This document shows positions 14,073 through 22,954 of a DNA stretch of 32,000 nucleotides, piece after piece (position 1 is the first letter of the stretch; every line of letters starts with the position of its first letter). The translations under genes and the position numbers were made by a program. The notes under the pieces were generated by a model. That model saw only the letters and a list, made by a program, of their open reading frames with translations. It was not told where the DNA came from and did no database searches. Origin of the DNA: Promethearchaeota archaeon (GTDB taxonomy: Archaea > Asgardarchaeota > Lokiarchaeia > Sigyniarchaeales > Promethearchaeaceae); assembly GCA_016933055.1 (NCBI GenBank), contig JAFGBS010000011.1, positions 22,632 to 54,631 on the forward strand. The letters are read 5' to 3'.

Positions 14073-16184
14073 TCACCCCTTTTTTTTGTACCGGAAACCA
14101 AAATTTACTTCATTCCCCTCTTCTATCCATTCATTCTTAAGGCGATTGGAATTCCCCTCAGCGATTGCTAAATCTTTAACACAAAAATCCAGATTTAGCT
14201 CTTTAAGAGTTGTTTCTAAGGGGAGGCCATCCTCTGTATACCCCATTGCCTTATAGTATATAAAAGCAAGTTTTTCTAGATCTAATGTTACTCCTTTCGT
14301 GGGACCTTTAGTTAACGGAGGATTACCGATTGCTCTCTGGCTTAACTCATGACGAATCGCTCCCTCTCGAGCATTAAACATCTGACGTAGAGTTTGTATG
14401 CGATGCCCTGTTTTAAGTAATTCTTCGGGTTTTACTTCCCAATCAAACACCGCTTTCATCATTTGTAAATACGGGTACAATCCGAAATTTGTGGAGAACA
14501 TGCATAATCCTAGTGTTTCATAGGTCTGATGGAATTTTACTACATTTGCAAAGTATGCAGCTTGTTCTTCTGGTATTTTTGAATCCTCAAATTCCAAACC
14601 ATCGACGAAGTATGAAAGCCCCATGCCAGCCTCCGTATTCATAGAAGCAGCAGTATGTCTTCCTGGAGTCGGATCAATGATATAAGTTAATCCGACGCTG
14701 GGATCAAATCTAGGATCATGCATTGGAAGTTCTTGTCCATTACAATGCATTACAAATTCGGAAGTATTTGGAATTTTCTGAGATGCAACCATTGTACCAT
14801 CTGCAAGAGTATCTCCAATTCCCTCTCTGGTTACTATTAATTTTAGCAAGGGTATTACCCATTGGGCGGCTCCCCAGGTTGGCAGAAACCCATCTGGATA
14901 TTCTGTACATTTAAAATCAGATTGCTTGAGTATTCCATTCTCTACAGCCTCCATGACAAAAGCAACAATATTTCCCGCGGAAATAGAGTCCATTCCCACT
15001 CGGTTAAGAAATTCATTGATTTTCATTAAGGCATCGAAATCATCACACAATATCATACATCCAAAAGATGCTGATGTTTCGTATTCAGGTCGATGAGTAG
15101 TTTTTTTTTCGTATGGTAAATTTTCGTATTCCAAAATGGCTCCACACTGGACGGGACAACCGAAACATCCATATTTACGTTTAGTTAATTTCTTAAACCG
15201 TTTGCCACGTAGTTTCATTGCTTTTTTGAAAGGAAAATCCTTGTATCCAATTCCCTTGAAATTCTTGACAGGCGCATCTCCAGTTTGCACACTCAGTACA
15301 TTTGCAACTGTTGTCCCTAATTTGCTTCCTCCGAACGTAGCGGTGGTAATTTTGGCGAAACTCTCCCCTGATCCTCCCAAACCGGATTTTAATAATCGCA
15401 GCATTGGTGATATCCGATCTAGCATTGGGAAAAAACCATTTATCATCTTATTGCTAGTGTAGGATTGTATTTTTTTGTTATATTCTTTAGCAAGAGCAAA
15501 AGCGCTTTTTTTGTCCGCATAATTCAACTGAGTGTTACCACACGCACAAATAGCTTTAAGTTTTTTTGATCCCATTACTGCCCCAAGACCACTTCGTGCA
15601 GCTATCCTCCCTCCATCAGTTACAATACCTGAAACTAAGCTAAGATTCTCTCCTGCCTGTCCTATAGAAGCAATTTCACATGATTTTCCGTGCTTTTTTT
15701 TCAATATCTCCTCGGTTTGAACACAATCTTTTCCCCAGATCTCTTTGGCAGATTCAATTGATGCCACTCCCTGATTTAATAAAAGATATACTGGATGTTT
15801 TGAGATTCCATGAAAAAAAATTCCATCATATCCTGTTTTTCGTAATGATGGTCCGAACATCCCTCCTGAATTCGAGTTCCCCCATCCTCCCGTACTATAT
15901 TTTCCATTTTTTCGTGAACCCTTCCCAGTTAAAGGAGACTTACCGCAAACAATAAATCTACCTGTCAAAGGTGCGGGAGAACCGGTCAACAATCCTGGTA
16001 ATACCCCTAAAATATTATCAGGACCTAAAGGATCACAGCATGGTACTATATTTTTATAGATATAGTATACTCCTAAGCCATATCCCCCATAGTATTGCCG
16101 ATAAATTGACTCGTCTATCATCTCGTCATTGGTTATACTCGAGCTAAGATCTACCACAAGAATTTTACCATGAATGCCTTCCAT
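14073..16184 (-). CDS. aor: Tungsten-dependent aldehyde:ferredoxin oxidoreductase family protein
   Basis: AARSGLGAVMGSKKLKAI, CFGCPVQC plus distal GLCMF (4Fe-4S Cys), RPEYET, GMDSIS, HDPR motifs. Confidence 0.92.
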   Translation of the reverse strand: MEGIHGKILVVDLSSSITNDEMIDESIYRQYYGGYGLGVYYIYKNIVPCCDPLGPDNILGVLPGLLTGSPAPLTGRFIVCGKSPLTGKGSRKNGKYSTGGWGNSNSGGMFGPSLRKTGYDGIFFHGISKHPVYLLLNQGVASIESAKEIWGKDCVQTEEILKKKHGKSCEIASIGQAGENLSLVSGIVTDGGRIAARSGLGAVMGSKKLKAICACGNTQLNYADKKSAFALAKEYNKKIQSYTSNKMINGFFPMLDRISPMLRLLKSGLGGSGESFAKITTATFGGSKLGTTVANVLSVQTGDAPVKNFKGIGYKDFPFKKAMKLRGKRFKKLTKRKYGCFGCPVQCGAILEYENLPYEKKTTHRPEYETSASFGCMILCDDFDALMKINEFLNRVGMDSISAGNIVAFVMEAVENGILKQSDFKCTEYPDGFLPTWGAAQWVIPLLKLIVTREGIGDTLADGTMVASQKIPNTSEFVMHCNGQELPMHDPRFDPSVGLTYIIDPTPGRHTAASMNTEAGMGLSYFVDGLEFEDSKIPEEQAAYFANVVKFHQTYETLGLCMFSTNFGLYPYLQMMKAVFDWEVKPEELLKTGHRIQTLRQMFNAREGAIRHELSQRAIGNPPLTKGPTKGVTLDLEKLAFIYYKAMGYTEDGLPLETTLKELNLDFCVKDLAIAEGNSNRLKNEWIEEGNEVNFGFRYKKKG

Positions 16185-16260
16185 TGTTGTTTCATCCTTA
16201 TTTGTTATATATAGAAAGCTACGTTTATCCTATCTCCAAAAAAGAATCAAAAATTAATTT

Positions 16261-17361
16261 CTAAAATTCTGGATACTTCTGGAAATCCTCCAGTTTTTGT
16301 TTGATCTCTTGTTTTCGTATGATTTCCTCTTCTGTGGGGTAAGGAGTTTCTGCCCATAAATCCACTTCCGGCATCTGCAATGATTTTCTTACTTTAGTTT
16401 CCAAGCGCCCAAATCCTACGCGGGAAGCAAAGAATTTGATTACCTTGAATTTCAATTTCGTAAGTTTCTTTTCCCATTCTTCAGCGAAACCACCATCTTC
16501 GATATATTGTAGAATAGGTTTTTGAATCTCTGAAATTTCTCGAAATATTTTGTCATATCGTATCGTACGACTGAGAATGCCATATTGAGATCGGTCCTCC
16601 ATAGTTTTGATACCATTAATCACCCCAAAATCTCGTATACCATTGAAGGTATACTTCATTTTCCCTGAAAGGATCATCTCAATTAGTATAGCTTCTGCAG
16701 GAATACCGAATTCAAGTAAAATATCCATAGGTTTCATAAGCATGCTACTACTGGCTGGTCCAAATCCTTGTTCGGTAAATAGGTCTAACACTGTTTCTTC
16801 CTTGAAATTCGTTTCTAAAGCTCCTTTGGTTAGCCCTCCTACACCCTTAGTTAGTGCAAGTAATATTTCTTGAGCTTTCCCTGTCCCATTCTGCCCAACT
16901 CCGATGAAGCTGAAGTAACCCTCACCATTTAAATAACACTCACGCACACCAATCCCTATCATTCGTGGTGCAATGATGAGAAGATCTATATCTTTAGGTG
17001 GTATGATGAAATTAAAAGCAATATTATATCCGTGGGCAAAAACCAGAGCAGAACCAGATTTGAGAAAAGGAAAGATTGAAGTTTTATAGACATCACATTG
17101 AATCTCATCTGGAATTAGCAAAAATATGACATCTGCACGTTTAATTGCCTCCGGAATATCAAAAGTCTCGAATCCATCTAAATTAGCACGTTCTCGATAG
17201 GAATCAGAGATATTTCCTACAATAACGTTTACACCATGGTCTCGCAAATTTAGCGCTTGAGAGCGCCCTTGATTTCCATATCCAATGAACGCAACAATTT
17301 TCCCATCGAGTATTGACATATCTGGTACATCAGATTCGCGATAAATCTTCACATCTCTCAT
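16261..17361 (-). CDS. ilvC: Ketol-acid reductoisomerase-like protein, paralogue A (N-terminal catalytic half intact)
   Basis: GYGNQGRSQALNLRD, LLIPDE, FAHGYNI, FKEETVLDLFTEQ; the distal motif is degenerate (SGK, no HSxTSQYG). The symbol denotes family only; the physiological substrate is unproven. Confidence 0.85.
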   Translation of the reverse strand: MRDVKIYRESDVPDMSILDGKIVAFIGYGNQGRSQALNLRDHGVNVIVGNISDSYRERANLDGFETFDIPEAIKRADVIFLLIPDEIQCDVYKTSIFPFLKSGSALVFAHGYNIAFNFIIPPKDIDLLIIAPRMIGIGVRECYLNGEGYFSFIGVGQNGTGKAQEILLALTKGVGGLTKGALETNFKEETVLDLFTEQGFGPASSSMLMKPMDILLEFGIPAEAILIEMILSGKMKYTFNGIRDFGVINGIKTMEDRSQYGILSRTIRYDKIFREISEIQKPILQYIEDGGFAEEWEKKLTKLKFKVIKFFASRVGFGRLETKVRKSLQMPEVDLWAETPYPTEEEIIRKQEIKQKLEDFQKYPEF

Positions 17362-17372
17362 TTTTTCCCCTC

Positions 17373-18479
17373 CTATATTCCTCCATAAAACTCCTTGATT
17401 TTTACTACTTCATCCTCCAAATAAAGGTCTTTTATGCTTTCTTCTGGTAGCGTAGCAGGTGTAAAAGTCTGCAACTTCCTAAATCCAAGGTTTTGCCTCA
17501 CCTTTTGCTCTATTTCTGCAAATTTCGAATGCTCAAAATAGAATTTCATAGTTTGCAGTAGCACTTTGCTTTTCTCTTCTTTCCATTCAGCAATAAACTC
17601 CCCGTCAACGATTTCCTGTAATATTCTGCGTTGGATTTTCTCGACGTCCTTAGATAGCGAACGGAATTTTATTCCTCGTGACATTTGACCATATTGACTG
17701 GTGTGTGAGTGAAAATTCATTTGTTTCATCATTCCAACTTCTATTGCCTTATCCATGGTGAATCCGCCCTCACCGGATAGAACTTGTTCCACCATTATGG
17801 ATTCCGCTGGATATCCATTTTCTACTAAATTCTCAACTGATCGAATGAGTATTTGAGCCATTACATAACTAAAAGTCTGTTCTGCAAATAGCTGCATCGT
17901 AATTTGCTGGGCGAAACTAATTTTCACAGCGGGTAACTTCAATCCCCCGATAGCTAGTGTCAATGCGAGCATGAGGTCTTCAGCAACTCTGGTTGGGTCT
18001 TGATGTATACCCACTAAACTGAAGAAACTATCATAATTCAGATATTTCTCTCGAATAGCTGCACCAGGTATTCTAGTAGTAATCAAAATCGCAGTACAAT
18101 CCGAAGGTAAGTGAATTTCTTCGTATATAACCGGATATCCACTGGAAAACACGAAAATCATTGATTTTTTCAAATTTGGTTGGATAAACTCCTCATATAT
18201 CCCCGCAATATCATCATCAGCTACCAAAAAAAAAATTATATCAGATTCTATGATCAATTCGGGGATTGATAACGGGGTAAACTCATCACGTTCTGCACGT
18301 TTTTTATATTCCTCATGATGAGTAGCGATTTTAACTTCTATTCCTGAATCCCGAAAATTCAAAGCATACGCTTTTGCAACGTTCCCATAACCGATGATAC
18401 CTATATTGTATGATTTTAAAATATCTAAATTTCCATCTTTCTCAAAATAGATTTTAACTGTCATTTTGCCTATACTCAT
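17373..18479 (-). CDS. ilvC: Ketol-acid reductoisomerase-like protein, paralogue B (N-terminal catalytic motifs degenerate, distal knot motifs intact)
   Basis: GYGNVAKAYALNFRDSG, FSSGY (His lost), QLFAEQ (Asp lost), but VEQVLSGE and HSHTSQYG are retained. The symbol denotes family only. Confidence 0.8.
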   Translation of the reverse strand: MSIGKMTVKIYFEKDGNLDILKSYNIGIIGYGNVAKAYALNFRDSGIEVKIATHHEEYKKRAERDEFTPLSIPELIIESDIIFFLVADDDIAGIYEEFIQPNLKKSMIFVFSSGYPVIYEEIHLPSDCTAILITTRIPGAAIREKYLNYDSFFSLVGIHQDPTRVAEDLMLALTLAIGGLKLPAVKISFAQQITMQLFAEQTFSYVMAQILIRSVENLVENGYPAESIMVEQVLSGEGGFTMDKAIEVGMMKQMNFHSHTSQYGQMSRGIKFRSLSKDVEKIQRRILQEIVDGEFIAEWKEEKSKVLLQTMKFYFEHSKFAEIEQKVRQNLGFRKLQTFTPATLPEESIKDLYLEDEVVKIKEFYGGI

Positions 18480-18531: not shown

Positions 18532-20022
18532 TCATCCCACGAAATACATAATTAAGAAAAATATGTAAAATAAAATCGCTAATATTATCAAAATCAATTC
18601 AAATATCGACATTCTATAACGGCTAGGTAATAATATATAATTAACTCCTATTGTACCCAAACAGAAAATAATCCCACCAATATTGGCAAGGGATCCTGCA
18701 AGCTGCACTTGTTCTACTGGTGCTACTCCGAATGCTATTACCGCAATCCATATTATGGTTAGAAGTGCTAATAAACCATAATATAGTCGACGAACATCTT
18801 TTTTCAGTAATTTTGAGGATTGTAATTTTGGATATGCATTCCATAACATATTTGTATAGTTCCGAACGGCTCCATCAATCACCCCCGAACCATCTACGTA
18901 AAAGATACCGGCCATAATCACGAGAATTAACCACCATGGGATGAAAGCAGGCATGTTTTGGGCAAGAACAGCAGTAAAACCGAATATTTGATCGGTTGCT
19001 GCTTCAGCAGGGACAAATTGCTCATATAATGCTACTGGGAATATCATAGTTACAATTGAACCTAAGAAAAAGATTGGGAACAACTCAGCCATAATATATC
19101 GATACCATTTTTTTGCTCGCTTATGGTTCACTTCATCATCTTTGGGCATATACCCCATTGTTTTAAACTCTATTTTCTCGCCCCCAGCTCCTCCAATATG
19201 CCCCATTCGTTTCGCCATACCCCATTCTGAATCTCGATAATATGTTGATATGGATAATCCAGCAGAAGCGGCCAGTCCTGCAAAACCTGCAACTGCTCCG
19301 AGTGCTTGCCAGTCTGGATCAGAAGGGACACTGCCGAACATAAACAAACCTTTGGTAACGTTCCATAAAGTAATCGGTTCCACGGTGATGATAGTGATAA
19401 TGATGATTGCTGGGATAATAATGATGAAATGTACAATAAAGAACATCAATCCCAAGGTTTTCATGATTTTCTTTCCGAGTATAAGGGGAAGCAATGTGAT
19501 AAGGAGAGCAATAATTCCCATAATCACCCAAAGGGTCAAATTTGCCTCCACTGTCGGAACATCTTTAATTATTAGAGCTACAAAAGTCATTCCCAGAAGT
19601 GCAGGATAATATGGGATTACTACCGAAGGTATACCCACCAATACCCATATAGGCGTCCATGCTTTCTTATTCATGAATAACCGATTCATCCCAACTTGCA
19701 CAGGCTCTCCTGTTAAGATAGTATATTTACTTCCAATGATGGCTGTATAGGTTTGAATTAAAATGGAAAACAAGGCGATCCATAAGATATTCGGACCATT
19801 CTTGACTACCAAAAAAGGAGCTGCTACTATTTCTCCCGTTCCTAACCCTAATCCCATAGCAATGATACCTGGTCCGATAAGGAATTTAAAATAATCTCTG
19901 ATTCCTTTCAATTTAAAGGGTTCTGGGATATCCACCGTGTCCGTAAACTTCTTATTCGTTCGAAATAATTTTTCTTTTTCTACAGGAGGATTAGCTGGTT
20001 CGTTTTCGTTCATAAGTGACAC
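18532..20022 (-). CDS. Nramp-like / APC-superfamily secondary transporter (YcsG-like), substrate unknown
   Basis: About 11 TM segments; N-terminal IGPGIIAMGLGLGTGE motif; GTG start at 20022 (alternative ATG 20013). Confidence 0.8.
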   Translation of the reverse strand: MSLMNENEPANPPVEKEKLFRTNKKFTDTVDIPEPFKLKGIRDYFKFLIGPGIIAMGLGLGTGEIVAAPFLVVKNGPNILWIALFSILIQTYTAIIGSKYTILTGEPVQVGMNRLFMNKKAWTPIWVLVGIPSVVIPYYPALLGMTFVALIIKDVPTVEANLTLWVIMGIIALLITLLPLILGKKIMKTLGLMFFIVHFIIIIPAIIIITIITVEPITLWNVTKGLFMFGSVPSDPDWQALGAVAGFAGLAASAGLSISTYYRDSEWGMAKRMGHIGGAGGEKIEFKTMGYMPKDDEVNHKRAKKWYRYIMAELFPIFFLGSIVTMIFPVALYEQFVPAEAATDQIFGFTAVLAQNMPAFIPWWLILVIMAGIFYVDGSGVIDGAVRNYTNMLWNAYPKLQSSKLLKKDVRRLYYGLLALLTIIWIAVIAFGVAPVEQVQLAGSLANIGGIIFCLGTIGVNYILLPSRYRMSIFELILIILAILFYIFFLIMYFVG

Positions 20023-20146: not shown

Positions 20147-20737
20147 ATGGTATTCATTAAGCAAAAAACACTTGCAGAATTATTTTTGGATCTTGATAAT
20201 GACCCTATCCTAGTTCAACTGGCTCTGGCAATTAATAAATTCCAAGGAATTACTGCCAATCGTTTGAAAAAGATTTTCTTTTTTTCTGGTAATAAAATCT
20301 ACTACTACTTATCCAAATTAGAGAAAAAAAAAATCATCTATAGTGAAGAGGAAAAAATAAAACGTAATTTCATCCAAAAAAAATACTATGCCAAATTACA
20401 ATATGAAGACCAAGGAAATTTTCTGGAGAGTTTTAGAAACGCAGAGAAAAAAGAGCATATGATCCTTAGACTCAGTATGATGTGTTCACTATTGCAAAGA
20501 CAAATAAATCAAATCCAAAAATTGAGCCAAGAGGAATATGAACAAAGGAAGGGAGAGATTTCCCAAATGTCGGAATTATATACAATCAGAGGGAAATTAA
20601 GCCCTAAACTAAAGAAACTCTTTACAGAACTGCAAGAGACTTTAAAGGAAGAATCTCTTACAGCTTTTGGTTCCAATCTTGAAGCAAGATTGCAAGCAGA
20701 CCATATTGGATATTTTGGATTTCTTCCTATGTATTGA
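20147..20737 (+). CDS. Winged helix-turn-helix (ArsR-like) transcriptional regulator
   Basis: ITANRLKK...NKIYYYLSKLEKKKIIY...KRNFIQKKYYA (HTH plus wing); divergent from the transporter operon. Confidence 0.75.
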   Translation: MVFIKQKTLAELFLDLDNDPILVQLALAINKFQGITANRLKKIFFFSGNKIYYYLSKLEKKKIIYSEEEKIKRNFIQKKYYAKLQYEDQGNFLESFRNAEKKEHMILRLSMMCSLLQRQINQIQKLSQEEYEQRKGEISQMSELYTIRGKLSPKLKKLFTELQETLKEESLTAFGSNLEARLQADHIGYFGFLPMY

Positions 20738-20806: not shown

Positions 20807-22954
20807 ATGATGGAAGAACCCCCTAAAAGCGTATCAAAAATTAAATCCATTTTAATTATTATTCTCAAATCAATGGGTTATCTTATTGGAATTTGCATGA
20901 TGATGCCTTATTTCTATAACATTGTTGCAGTTCTCATAGGATTAGCGTATTTTATTACATTTACGAAGAAATGGCGGCTTAGTGGATTTATGCTCGTACT
21001 TGCTACTGCACTGGGAACCAATGCTCCGCAACGTGGGTTTGTAGAAATAACCGGAATCTATCCATTAATGTTAGTATTTTATACAAGCTTCGGTTTTATC
21101 GGAATTTACTTGATTTGTTTATTACTATGGGGGATTTTTAGTCGAGTTAAATCCATTAAATCTTGGATTGAATCAATTGAAGAAAATTTGTCTCGGAAAT
21201 GGAGGATTTCTTCAAAGTTAAAAACCATACTATTGATAGGAGTTATAAGCGCACCTACGTTATTTTATGGATCAATTAGCATCCATTTTGGAGTGATGTT
21301 TGATAACAAACCCCAATTATTATGGGTTCATGCACCTACTACTACTCAACCAGGTACACCCTTTACAGTAACTGTGCAATCTTGGGATAAATTCGAAAGA
21401 GTATCCGCTCAATATAAAGGCACAGTATCATTTTCTCTGGAATCTTATAATATTACCACTCAGAACTTAATTTCCACTCCAATTGCTAGCCTTCCATCCA
21501 GTTATGCTTTTTCAGGGATAAATTGTCCCTCGGGAACGGCTTATTTACTTGAAAATGGAAAAGACAATGGAATACATCAATTTAGTATGAGTATATCCAC
21601 TGAGGGAATTCATTATCTTAAGGTTTCAGATACCACAACTAATAATGTGTATTATAGTAACCCAATAGTGGTGCGTCATACTGGTCCACAAATCTATTGG
21701 GGAGATATTCATTCTCATTCCATCTATTCAGATGGTAGTGGCACCCCATCACATGCGTTGCTTTACGCAGAGCAAGTTGCATGTCTAGATTTTTTTGCCT
21801 TAACAGAGCACGGGGAACTTATTACTTTGGGGAATTCTTGGTTTAAGAATTATAAAGAAGTCATGATTGCAGCTAATAAACCGGGTGAGTTTGTCACTTT
21901 CCTGGGAATGGAATATACGAACCACAAAACGGGACACATTACATGTATCTTTGATAGTGAGGAATTGCCATACCAACCCATGGTCACATCGAAAGGTATA
22001 GACACTCCGTTTGAACTCTGGGATCTTTTAGATAATTTCACGCTCTATACTGGCTCTCGTGCTTTAGCGTTACCTCATCATACCGTGAAGGAACGATATA
22101 TGCAAGACTGGACATATTATAATCCTAAATATGTAAAAATTGCAGAAGTGACCTCCACTCATGGAGATTGTTTATATGATCAACACCATCCACTAAGTTA
22201 TCGTGGAGCTACCGTTGCACCCCCAGTTGGCACTCGGGGTGCATCAATTACAGATGCATTGCAAATGGGAATAAATTTAACCTTATATGCATCTTCAGAT
22301 GGGCATGACGGTCATCCAGGTCATACATTATCTCATACTAAAGTGCGGGTCGCGCATCAACAACCTTTAACTCCATGGTGGACCAGAATTGATAAACCCT
22401 ATCCGGGAGGAATCACAGCCGTATATAGCTCAAGTTTAACTCGCTCTACTGTTTTCGATCAACTACAAGATTGTAGTATCTACGCGAATTCCGAGCATGG
22501 ACGACCTTATCTTGATTTTGCAATTAATGGAAGAAGAATAGGGGGTAATTCGACCTTGAAAGTTGTAGATGCAAGCACACCACGAAATATTACCATATGG
22601 ATTGCGCAAGATGGTGCACCAGCAAGCAGTTTGAATAAAGCAGCAAGTGTAACAGCAAGTTGGATTCCTAATTGGAATGCGGAAGTTGAAATTTTAAAAA
22701 ATGGAGTTCTCTTAACCAGTATACCAATTACTACTCCCTATGAGCAAGTAGAGTATCAAGATTTAACAAATATTACGGGAACATCTTATGACTACTGTGT
22801 GGAGATTGATGGAGAGTATTACTTAAATGAATACAGTGACAATGCGGTAGATCCTACCAGTCTAAATACCGATGGAAGAGATTTTTATATAATTCGAATA
22901 GTGGGAGAAAATGGTAGACATTCCTATATCGGCCCTTTATGGGTAACCTTCTGA
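20807..22954 (+). CDS. Membrane-anchored DUF3604 / CehA-McbA-like PHP-fold metallohydrolase
   Basis: N-terminal TMs, an Ig-like segment, then WGDIHSHSIYSDG, LTEH, GMEY, LPHH, EVTSTHG, ASSDGH metal-binding motifs. Confidence 0.85.
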   Translation: MMEEPPKSVSKIKSILIIILKSMGYLIGICMMMPYFYNIVAVLIGLAYFITFTKKWRLSGFMLVLATALGTNAPQRGFVEITGIYPLMLVFYTSFGFIGIYLICLLLWGIFSRVKSIKSWIESIEENLSRKWRISSKLKTILLIGVISAPTLFYGSISIHFGVMFDNKPQLLWVHAPTTTQPGTPFTVTVQSWDKFERVSAQYKGTVSFSLESYNITTQNLISTPIASLPSSYAFSGINCPSGTAYLLENGKDNGIHQFSMSISTEGIHYLKVSDTTTNNVYYSNPIVVRHTGPQIYWGDIHSHSIYSDGSGTPSHALLYAEQVACLDFFALTEHGELITLGNSWFKNYKEVMIAANKPGEFVTFLGMEYTNHKTGHITCIFDSEELPYQPMVTSKGIDTPFELWDLLDNFTLYTGSRALALPHHTVKERYMQDWTYYNPKYVKIAEVTSTHGDCLYDQHHPLSYRGATVAPPVGTRGASITDALQMGINLTLYASSDGHDGHPGHTLSHTKVRVAHQQPLTPWWTRIDKPYPGGITAVYSSSLTRSTVFDQLQDCSIYANSEHGRPYLDFAINGRRIGGNSTLKVVDASTPRNITIWIAQDGAPASSLNKAASVTASWIPNWNAEVEILKNGVLLTSIPITTPYEQVEYQDLTNITGTSYDYCVEIDGEYYLNEYSDNAVDPTSLNTDGRDFYIIRIVGENGRHSYIGPLWVTF

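Follow-up and report, generated by a model that had tools for sequence, protein, structure and literature searches.

Ketol-acid reductoisomerase (KARI), a much-studied enzyme, serves as a herbicide and antibiotic target, as a workhorse of isobutanol engineering and as a textbook case of a knotted protein. The class I enzymes dimerize through intertwined knot domains and each active site is made by two chains (PMC5940873, PMC13753588), the pocket being composed of one subunit's N and C domains and the second one's C domain (PMC13753588). D191 and E195 coordinate Mg(I), while D191, E227 and E231 coordinate Mg(II) (PMC5940873), the same ligands are used in a methanogen KARI (PMC8615647), and in published structures Asp191/Glu195 and Glu227/Glu231 are supplied by different monomers (PMC5940873); Glu230 has been termed completely conserved (PMC13753588). 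Among the papers and structures searched, natural KARIs were found only as homo-oligomers or as internally duplicated single chains, and a full-text literature search returned no heterodimeric or heteromeric KARI and nothing on KARI paralogues of Asgard archaea. Here we analyzed a 32,000-nucleotide (nt) stretch of the genome of a Promethearchaeota archaeon (contig JAFGBS010000011.1, positions 22,632 to 54,631; hereafter the window), which carries two adjacent KARI-like genes, A and B, each lacking the part of the active site that the other retains. We consider it likely that their products are the subunits of an obligate heterodimeric class I-type KARI with one competent site. An earlier sequence-only reading of this locus had proposed such an enzyme on the premise that the site is shared between subunits, and was not aware of a described heterodimeric KARI; both points agree with the literature searched.

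Both genes lie on the minus strand, gene B (17373–18479; 368 aa, P0002) as the upstream and gene A (16261–17361; 366 aa, P0001) as the downstream member, and an 11-nt spacer (17362–17372, minus strand; GAGGGGAAAAA) runs from the stop of B to the start of A; the two open reading frames (ORFs) and their distance are thus as previously read, with the strand now added. A GGAGGGG Shine-Dalgarno-like run, made up of the spacer and the last bases of B, overlaps the TAG of B, which suggests co-transcription and coupled translation of B and A. Each protein shows Pfam KARI_N (PF07991) followed by KARI_C (PF01450) in the class I layout of ~330–370 aa (5.9e-54 and 1.4e-09 for A, 3.1e-36 and 3.8e-14 for B), and the two are 34% identical over 341 residues. 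The closest solved relative of A is the KARI of Saccharolobus solfataricus (Sso-KARI, 6jcv; 5.6e-66), and the closest solved match of B is that of Sulfolobus acidocaldarius (5yeq). With the class I ‘E-x5-E / HSxTSQYG’ KARIs, such as 6jcv, the pair shares the two-domain layout, FASGY, APRMIG, the E...SGE spacing and HSxTSQYG. However, class I KARIs are homo-oligomers (dimers or dodecamers) with both half-sites on every chain, whereas here two genes would be required and no chain is complete; moreover, both A and B differ from the solved members of the subclass by a C-terminal extension of ~35 residues, as in the ‘long’ single-copy KARIs of Asgard archaea (hereafter singles). Both proteins fall below the NCBIfam ilvC equivalog cut-offs of 336 bits for NF004017 (A, 230; B, 189) and 226 bits for TIGR00465 (A, 207; B, 160), and in NCBI their homologues are named ‘NAD(P)-binding domain-containing protein’ or ‘NAD(P)-dependent oxidoreductase’, whereas the name KARI is given to the singles. 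Because A and B are under these cut-offs and carry generic NAD(P)-binding names, the KARI step would be scored missing in pathway reconstructions of these Asgard archaea.

To define what each chain retains, the residues of A and B were checked codon by codon, and their equivalences were taken from HMMER alignments to solved KARIs and from a MAFFT alignment. A possesses the nucleotide motifs GYGNQG (G27/G29/G32) and P84-D85-E86 within IPDE, together with all three cis acidic residues (16771–16797, minus strand), namely E189 (16795–16797), D193 (16783–16785) and E197 (16771–16773), which correspond to E186, D190 and E194 and are invariant in the A-type proteins of other genomes and in the singles. 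In its distal half, E228, the first Glu of the E...SG-x pair, is present, K234 (16660–16662, minus strand) stands at the Glu230/231 position, that of a direct ligand of Mg site II (PMC8615647, PMC5940873), and E255-D256-R257-S258 (16588–16599, minus strand) is a decayed form of the ancestral H-S-x-T of the Ser249 region. B has the nucleotide motifs GYGNVA (G30/G32/A35) and A87-D88-D89 within VADD, and at its cis positions (17880–17906, minus strand) Q192 replaces E186 and Q196 replaces D190, the residue that bridges both Mg ions, with E200 at E194. Its trans half-site (17697–17789, minus strand) is retained, with E231 (17787–17789), E237 (17769–17771) and H257-S258-H259-T260-S261 (17697–17711), of which E231, E237, H257, S258, T260 and S261 are invariant across B-types and singles. 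In both alignments Glu230/231 is matched by K234 of A and E237 of B, and Asp190/191 by Q196 of B. The full set of Mg2+ ligands and polar residues (E186, D190, E194, E226, E230 and Ser249/251) is therefore present in neither chain and is found only when A and B are combined. These results bear out what the sequence-only reading had said of the retained proximal set and decayed distal motifs of A, of the E231/E237 and HSHTSQYG of B, and of SGE and SGK as occupants of the E230 position. Its statement that B has lost the proximal set holds firmly for the acidic residues (Q192 and Q196), while the cofactor fingerprint is weakened rather than erased, with GxGxxA and the Asp of PDE kept.

The correspondence of the SGE Glu with Glu230 deserves comment, since this subclass has a two-residue ‘SG’ insertion between the two Glu residues, giving E-x5-E instead of the usual E-x3-E. 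This Glu is invariant in more than 90 members of the subclass, including the subclass of the solved Sso-KARI, and it is on the grounds of the sequence alignment and of this invariance that we take it as Glu230.

Whether the defects of A and B are losses or ancestral states was addressed with an outgroup search, in which 40 relatives and then 400 genomes of the phylum were scanned. About 120 genomes of the phylum have one long KARI of 360–370 aa, and 11 have two copies; the homologues are recorded in NCBI under names of the Asgard groups Promethearchaeota, Heimdallarchaeota, Hodarchaeota, Lokiarchaeota and Thorarchaeota, and the intact long form is the sole KARI in most genomes of family f3. 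The site is complete in all 27 genome singles of the MAFFT set and in all 102 database singles (clusters), with the motifs GYGNQGR, IPDE, FASGY, APRMIG, E..LD..F.EQ, E....SGE and HSxTSQYG; SGE varies to SNE or SEE in some of them, the Glu being kept in all. Neither the A-type nor the B-type motif pattern occurs among the 129 singles. As all singles are intact, the defects of A and B are derived losses. One residue has to be taken off that list: FASGY, with Ser at the ‘His107’ position, is found in 99 of the 102 database singles and in Sso-KARI, so Ser is ancestral in the subclass and S113 of B, which the sequence-only reading had counted as a lost His, is not a loss. It is A that departs from the ancestor here, with H110 (17032–17034) in place of the Ser of FASGY. 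His is the canonical KARI residue (FAHGF), it occurs in one A subclade (this genome, L020 and the f16 genomes) with the remaining A-types retaining Ser, and it is a secondary change within that subclade. The C-terminal helix extension of ~35 residues in Asgard long KARIs ends in F-x-x-[FY]-Y/P-E-[FY] and comprises residues 331–366 of A and 331–368 of B; identity in this tail is 0.55 among A-types versus 0.30 among B-types, and in the A/B complex model described below it is predicted to contact the partner chain.

We then asked how widely the pair is distributed, using as pair loci L019, L020 and L022, those in ten genomes of the phylum scan, those of four A-types on long contigs, and two loci seen for gene order (L070 and L071). 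B followed by A was found in at least 18 loci, and in the 16 that were checked motif by motif the same reciprocal losses were present throughout. The four extra A-types on long contigs had been picked as a prospective test, and each of the four had a B-type gene upstream. Among the genes on contigs long enough to judge, no orphan A-type or B-type was found, and B was always upstream; the co-occurrence that the sequence-only reading had put up as a check is thus observed, with no B-type lacking its A-type. The two genes are 4–60 nt apart or overlap in the other loci, except in one lineage (L056 and L067) with 2.8–4.3 kb between them. B-type proteins occur in other genomes at 44–49% identity. 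In three genomes, namely this one (91% complete), one with a complete 4.9-Mb single contig and one other, the pair is the sole KARI_N gene.

The reciprocal losses were seen in all 34 A-type and all 10 B-type proteins examined, and chance does not account for the pattern. A-types keep GxGxxG (the third Gly being Ser in a few), PDE, APRMIG and E186/D190/E194, while at Glu230 they never have Glu (K, N, A, T, R, W or Q instead) and their HS motif is scrambled. B-types never have Asp at Asp190 (Q, S, N, E, K or G instead), have Gln at E186 (Ala in one lineage) and have lost E194 in about half of the cases; their third Gly has become Ala and the Pro of PDE is mostly lost with the Asp kept, but E226, E230 and HSxTSQYG are invariant. 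As a separate observation, R257 of A (16591–16593) takes the place of the Thr of HSxTSQYG, which is a conserved Arg in 12 of 14 A-types (xxDERSQYG), and its column is among the few newly conserved ones in the decayed half of A; this Arg could plug or re-purpose the dead site.

Such a distribution bears on the view that A and B form separate homo-oligomers with unrelated functions, or that B is a decaying copy, their adjacency being a leftover of tandem duplication. Independent divergence is indeed common among tandem paralogues, and both proteins are below the ilvC equivalog cut-offs. Nevertheless, the ORF of B is intact in 15 of the 16 loci checked, across three or more families of the phylum (f1, f3 and f16), and B co-diverges with A; the losses are complementary rather than random; a B/B dimer would be without the bridging Asp in both sites; and in the one degraded locus (G186) A and B are damaged together. 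We therefore regard this view as highly improbable. At that locus (L060, G186:C57:651-2575), both genes look degraded, B having an internal TAA and a missing C-terminus and A lacking the first ~30 residues (SSGNQGR for GYGNQGR), and the damage could reflect joint pseudogenisation or an assembly error.

In a maximum-likelihood tree, the A clade (support 100/99) and the B clade (100/100) are nested among the singles of family f3, with the same branching order inside both clades and longer branches in B. By this phylogeny, one duplication followed by co-inheritance and co-divergence of the pair, including its presence in f1, f3 and f16, is indicated. Together with the intact ancestral singles, the two supported and congruent clades agree with the subfunctionalisation after duplication that had been proposed earlier. 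Further, the reciprocity between A and B extends to whole segments and not to single residues alone. Pairwise identity among A-types versus B-types is 0.66 versus 0.51 in the N domain and 0.76 versus 0.48 in the D190 helix, and is inverted in the E226–S251 segment, at 0.51 versus 0.77. Likewise, of the residues conserved at ≥90% in the singles, A-types retain 95% in the N domain, 80% in the D190 helix and 55% in the E226–S251 segment, compared with 74%, 43% and 79% in B-types. The donated half of B is invariant although the site of B itself is dead, which indicates that it completes the site of another chain, whereas the donated half of A is free to vary, which indicates that no partner uses it; and as the replacements at the lost positions vary, they point to relaxed constraint at a dead site and not to a new catalytic residue.

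These patterns also speak to the alternative that A alone is the enzyme, as a homo- or higher oligomer with changed chemistry that works without Glu230 and Ser249, for instance an NAD(P)H-dependent 2-ketoacid reductase, with B in a non-catalytic regulatory or scaffold role. The cofactor site of A is whole, E189, D193, E197 and E228 are kept, B is plainly degenerate in its own site, and KARI relatives with altered chemistry exist, such as BurG and ApnO, the latter having His at the Glu230 position (PMC13753588). BurG (7pcc and others) and ApnO share the KARI fold with A and B and show that the family can change its chemistry (PMC13753588), and BurG structures were among the structural matches of both A and B. 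However, BurG and ApnO are homodimers with conserved replacement chemistry, whereas the replaced positions in A-types are variable, and the residue in place of Glu230 (K, N, A, T, R, W or Q) is not conserved. In addition, the donated half of B (E231, E237 and HSxTSQYG) is invariant though B-types are only 42–49% identical overall, and A-type genes lacking a B-type gene were not encountered on contigs long enough to judge. An enzyme made of A alone thus seems quite unlikely.

We favor the heterodimer because every lost element maps to one physical site and every invariant element to the other, which has stayed under purifying selection. A class I site consists of the Rossmann domain and first knot helix (E186/D190/E194) of one chain together with the E226/E230 helix and the Ser249/251 loop of its partner. 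After one duplication of an Asgard long KARI, the copies would have decayed in opposite directions, A keeping the elements of its own site and losing those donated to the partner, and B keeping the donated elements while losing its own metal ligands and weakening its cofactor fingerprint. The live site of an A/B dimer would accordingly join the N domain and E189/D193/E197 of A with E231/E237/H257–S261 of B, while the dead site would join the N domain and cis acids of B with the trans half of A. Pairing A with itself would leave both sites without the Ser loop and the direct Mg(II) ligand, and pairing B with itself would deprive both of the bridging Asp. This residue pattern, together with the published cis and trans assignment, supports the earlier proposal that neither homodimer is complete and that A/B gives exactly one intact site. 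We likewise consider it likely that A and B associate physically in the cell, that they are active only together, and that they share the substrates of the single-copy enzyme, namely acetolactate-type 2-hydroxy-3-ketoacids with NAD(P)H and Mg2+. The same KARI reaction is the default expectation here, given that A and B together make up a site identical to the one in the singles.

The complex was also modeled. With family alignments, the A/B prediction gave an interface score (ipSAE) of 0.90 in all three runs, compared with 0.00 for three controls; 58 of 80 solved complexes reach that mark, as do 2 of 110 mismatched pairs. The model has ~410 contacts, at least 95% of which agree between the three runs, with a predicted local distance difference test (pLDDT) value of 89 for the partner, and its interface includes residues 84–86, 133–135 and 191–208 of A against 230–269 of B, plus the reverse. 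Because KARI homodimers have been solved, the score may be reproduced from those structures and shows likeness rather than binding. In a monomer model of A the N domain is confident and the knot domain has a pLDDT of ~50–60, as expected without a partner, the only feature seen in the knot region being a helix break at S232-G233. B-specific changes at contact positions (F to L at B308 and I to M at B311, facing M to L at A263) are suggestive of a preference for A/B over A/A or B/B, and were not used as evidence.

As to the gene neighbourhood, B is preceded by a gene for an Nramp-like membrane transporter (18532–20022, minus strand; 496 aa, P0004; NCBIfam Nramp_1 5.5e-27, no Pfam match), in which GLGTGE was found by eye at the position of the canonical Nramp DPGN. 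Farther on is a gene for a candidate membrane-anchored DUF3604-like metallohydrolase (20807–22954, plus strand; 715 aa; Pfam DUF3604 6.9e-12). Neighbours of these kinds accompany the pair in this window and in L019, L020, L022, L053–L055, L058 and L065–L067. Homologues of the Nramp-like protein with 59–62% identity stand beside the pair in seven other loci, giving eight in all, and three loci have a NIPA-like transporter instead, the two being unrelated families of putative cation type. Homologues of the DUF3604-like protein (48–53% identity) occur in two other pair loci, L020 and L054, giving three in all, and four loci have a PhoD-like hydrolase of an unrelated family; L067 pairs Nramp-like with PhoD-like. 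Two further neighbours were considered as members of the unit and rejected. Homologues of the tungsten-type aldehyde:ferredoxin oxidoreductase (AOR) downstream of A (14073–16184, minus strand; Pfam AFOR_N and AFOR_C) were found in none of the 15 other pair loci searched; the 76-nt gap between A and the AOR gene (16185–16260) contains a T-run and a TATA-like box, the AOR gene having its own TATA-like box. The small upstream putative regulator (ORF 20147–20737) likewise has no homologue in the other pair loci.

Several of our observations weigh against a heterodimeric KARI as proposed. The identification of the SGE Glu with Glu230 crosses the two-residue insertion, and so rests on alignment rather than on a residue-level superposition. 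B retains GxGxxA and the Asp of PDE, and its N domain may still be able to bind a dinucleotide and serve a separate function. Since all pairs share one duplication, the many loci represent one maintained event and not independent replicates, and the complex model cannot rank A/B against A/A or B/B. The conserved linkage to transporter and hydrolase genes could point to a different physiological role, and the rest of the branched-chain pathway gives an uneven picture. The two IlvD/EDD genes of this genome are each found within a cluster of sugar-acid type, one with an MFS_2 transporter, a Gfo/Idh/MocA oxidoreductase, a second AOR and a divergent TPP enzyme (L068, G000:C22:107000-126999), the other with MFS_2, a RraA-like aldolase, an epimerase or dehydrogenase, a metallo-beta-lactamase-fold protein and a LarA-like protein (L069, G000:C10:36000-52000). 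The IlvD matches of this genome exceed the ilvD equivalog cut-off, and judged by these clusters the proteins may be sugar-acid dehydratases rather than the branched-chain enzyme. The match to the acetolactate synthase (ALS) large subunit is below its cut-off, a search for the ALS small subunit did not find one, and an HMGL-like synthase, present in this genome (G000), was not found in the complete genome G041; there are also aconitase-family and Iso_dh genes. Elsewhere in L068 (12177–16669), the same genome carries adjoining genes for a Gtr1/RagA/Arf-like small GTPase, a SNAP/TPR-like protein and a protein with VWA and RING-finger domains, which are of eukaryote-signature type and in keeping with an Asgard archaeal origin.

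The last of these points raise the possibility that the A/B heteromer was recruited to a new pathway, its substrate being a different hydroxy-keto acid, one connected with the transporter and extracellular hydrolase genes nearby. An Nramp-like or NIPA-like transporter is linked to the pair in 11 loci and a DUF3604-like or PhoD-like hydrolase in seven, this context was not seen around the singles examined, whose own surroundings were uninformative, and a complete branched-chain amino acid pathway is weakly supported. Nevertheless, the composite A+B site equals the single-copy site residue for residue with no sign of an altered substrate pocket, and three genomes have no KARI homologue besides the pair, so that we hold recruitment to be possible but doubtful. 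This reading bears solely on the physiological role and is consistent with the heterodimer mechanism.

Duplicated enzymes with shared sites are known outside this family. In the trypanosomatid AdoMetDC–prozyme and deoxyhypusine synthase, a duplication was followed by the loss of catalytic residues from one copy, and activity needs the heteromer; there one paralogue is dead, whereas A and B are both partly degenerate, with complementary halves. Within the family, a parallel is offered by class II KARI (E. coli and plants) along with the engineered 5e4r, where, as proposed for A/B, one N domain and two non-equivalent knot-domain copies make one competent site; 5e4r, a domain-duplicated class I enzyme of 490 aa, matches the knot domain of A and of B twice. 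However, class II KARI is internally duplicated within one chain and lacks a second N domain, whereas in A/B the knot domains are on separate chains and B retains a complete, degenerate Rossmann domain. The likening of the pair to class II KARI in the sequence-only reading is consequently apt for the one site with two non-equivalent knot domains, and remains partial because B keeps its whole N domain. A more speculative extension, which we think unlikely, is that the dead site, with the folded GxGxxA Rossmann domain of B and the Arg loop of A, has been retained as a pocket that binds nucleotide or metal in a regulatory or structural role, the pair being a long-maintained two-gene stage between symmetric class I and single-site class II; such a pocket could explain the persistent linkage to putative divalent-cation transporters of two unrelated families.

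If the heterodimer is true, this conserved two-gene KARI would be a clean natural case in which a shared active site has degenerated reciprocally, a subfunctionalisation by half-sites. It would also provide a living model for the origin of the asymmetric class II architecture, and a ready-made single-site KARI for mechanistic work on half-of-sites behavior.

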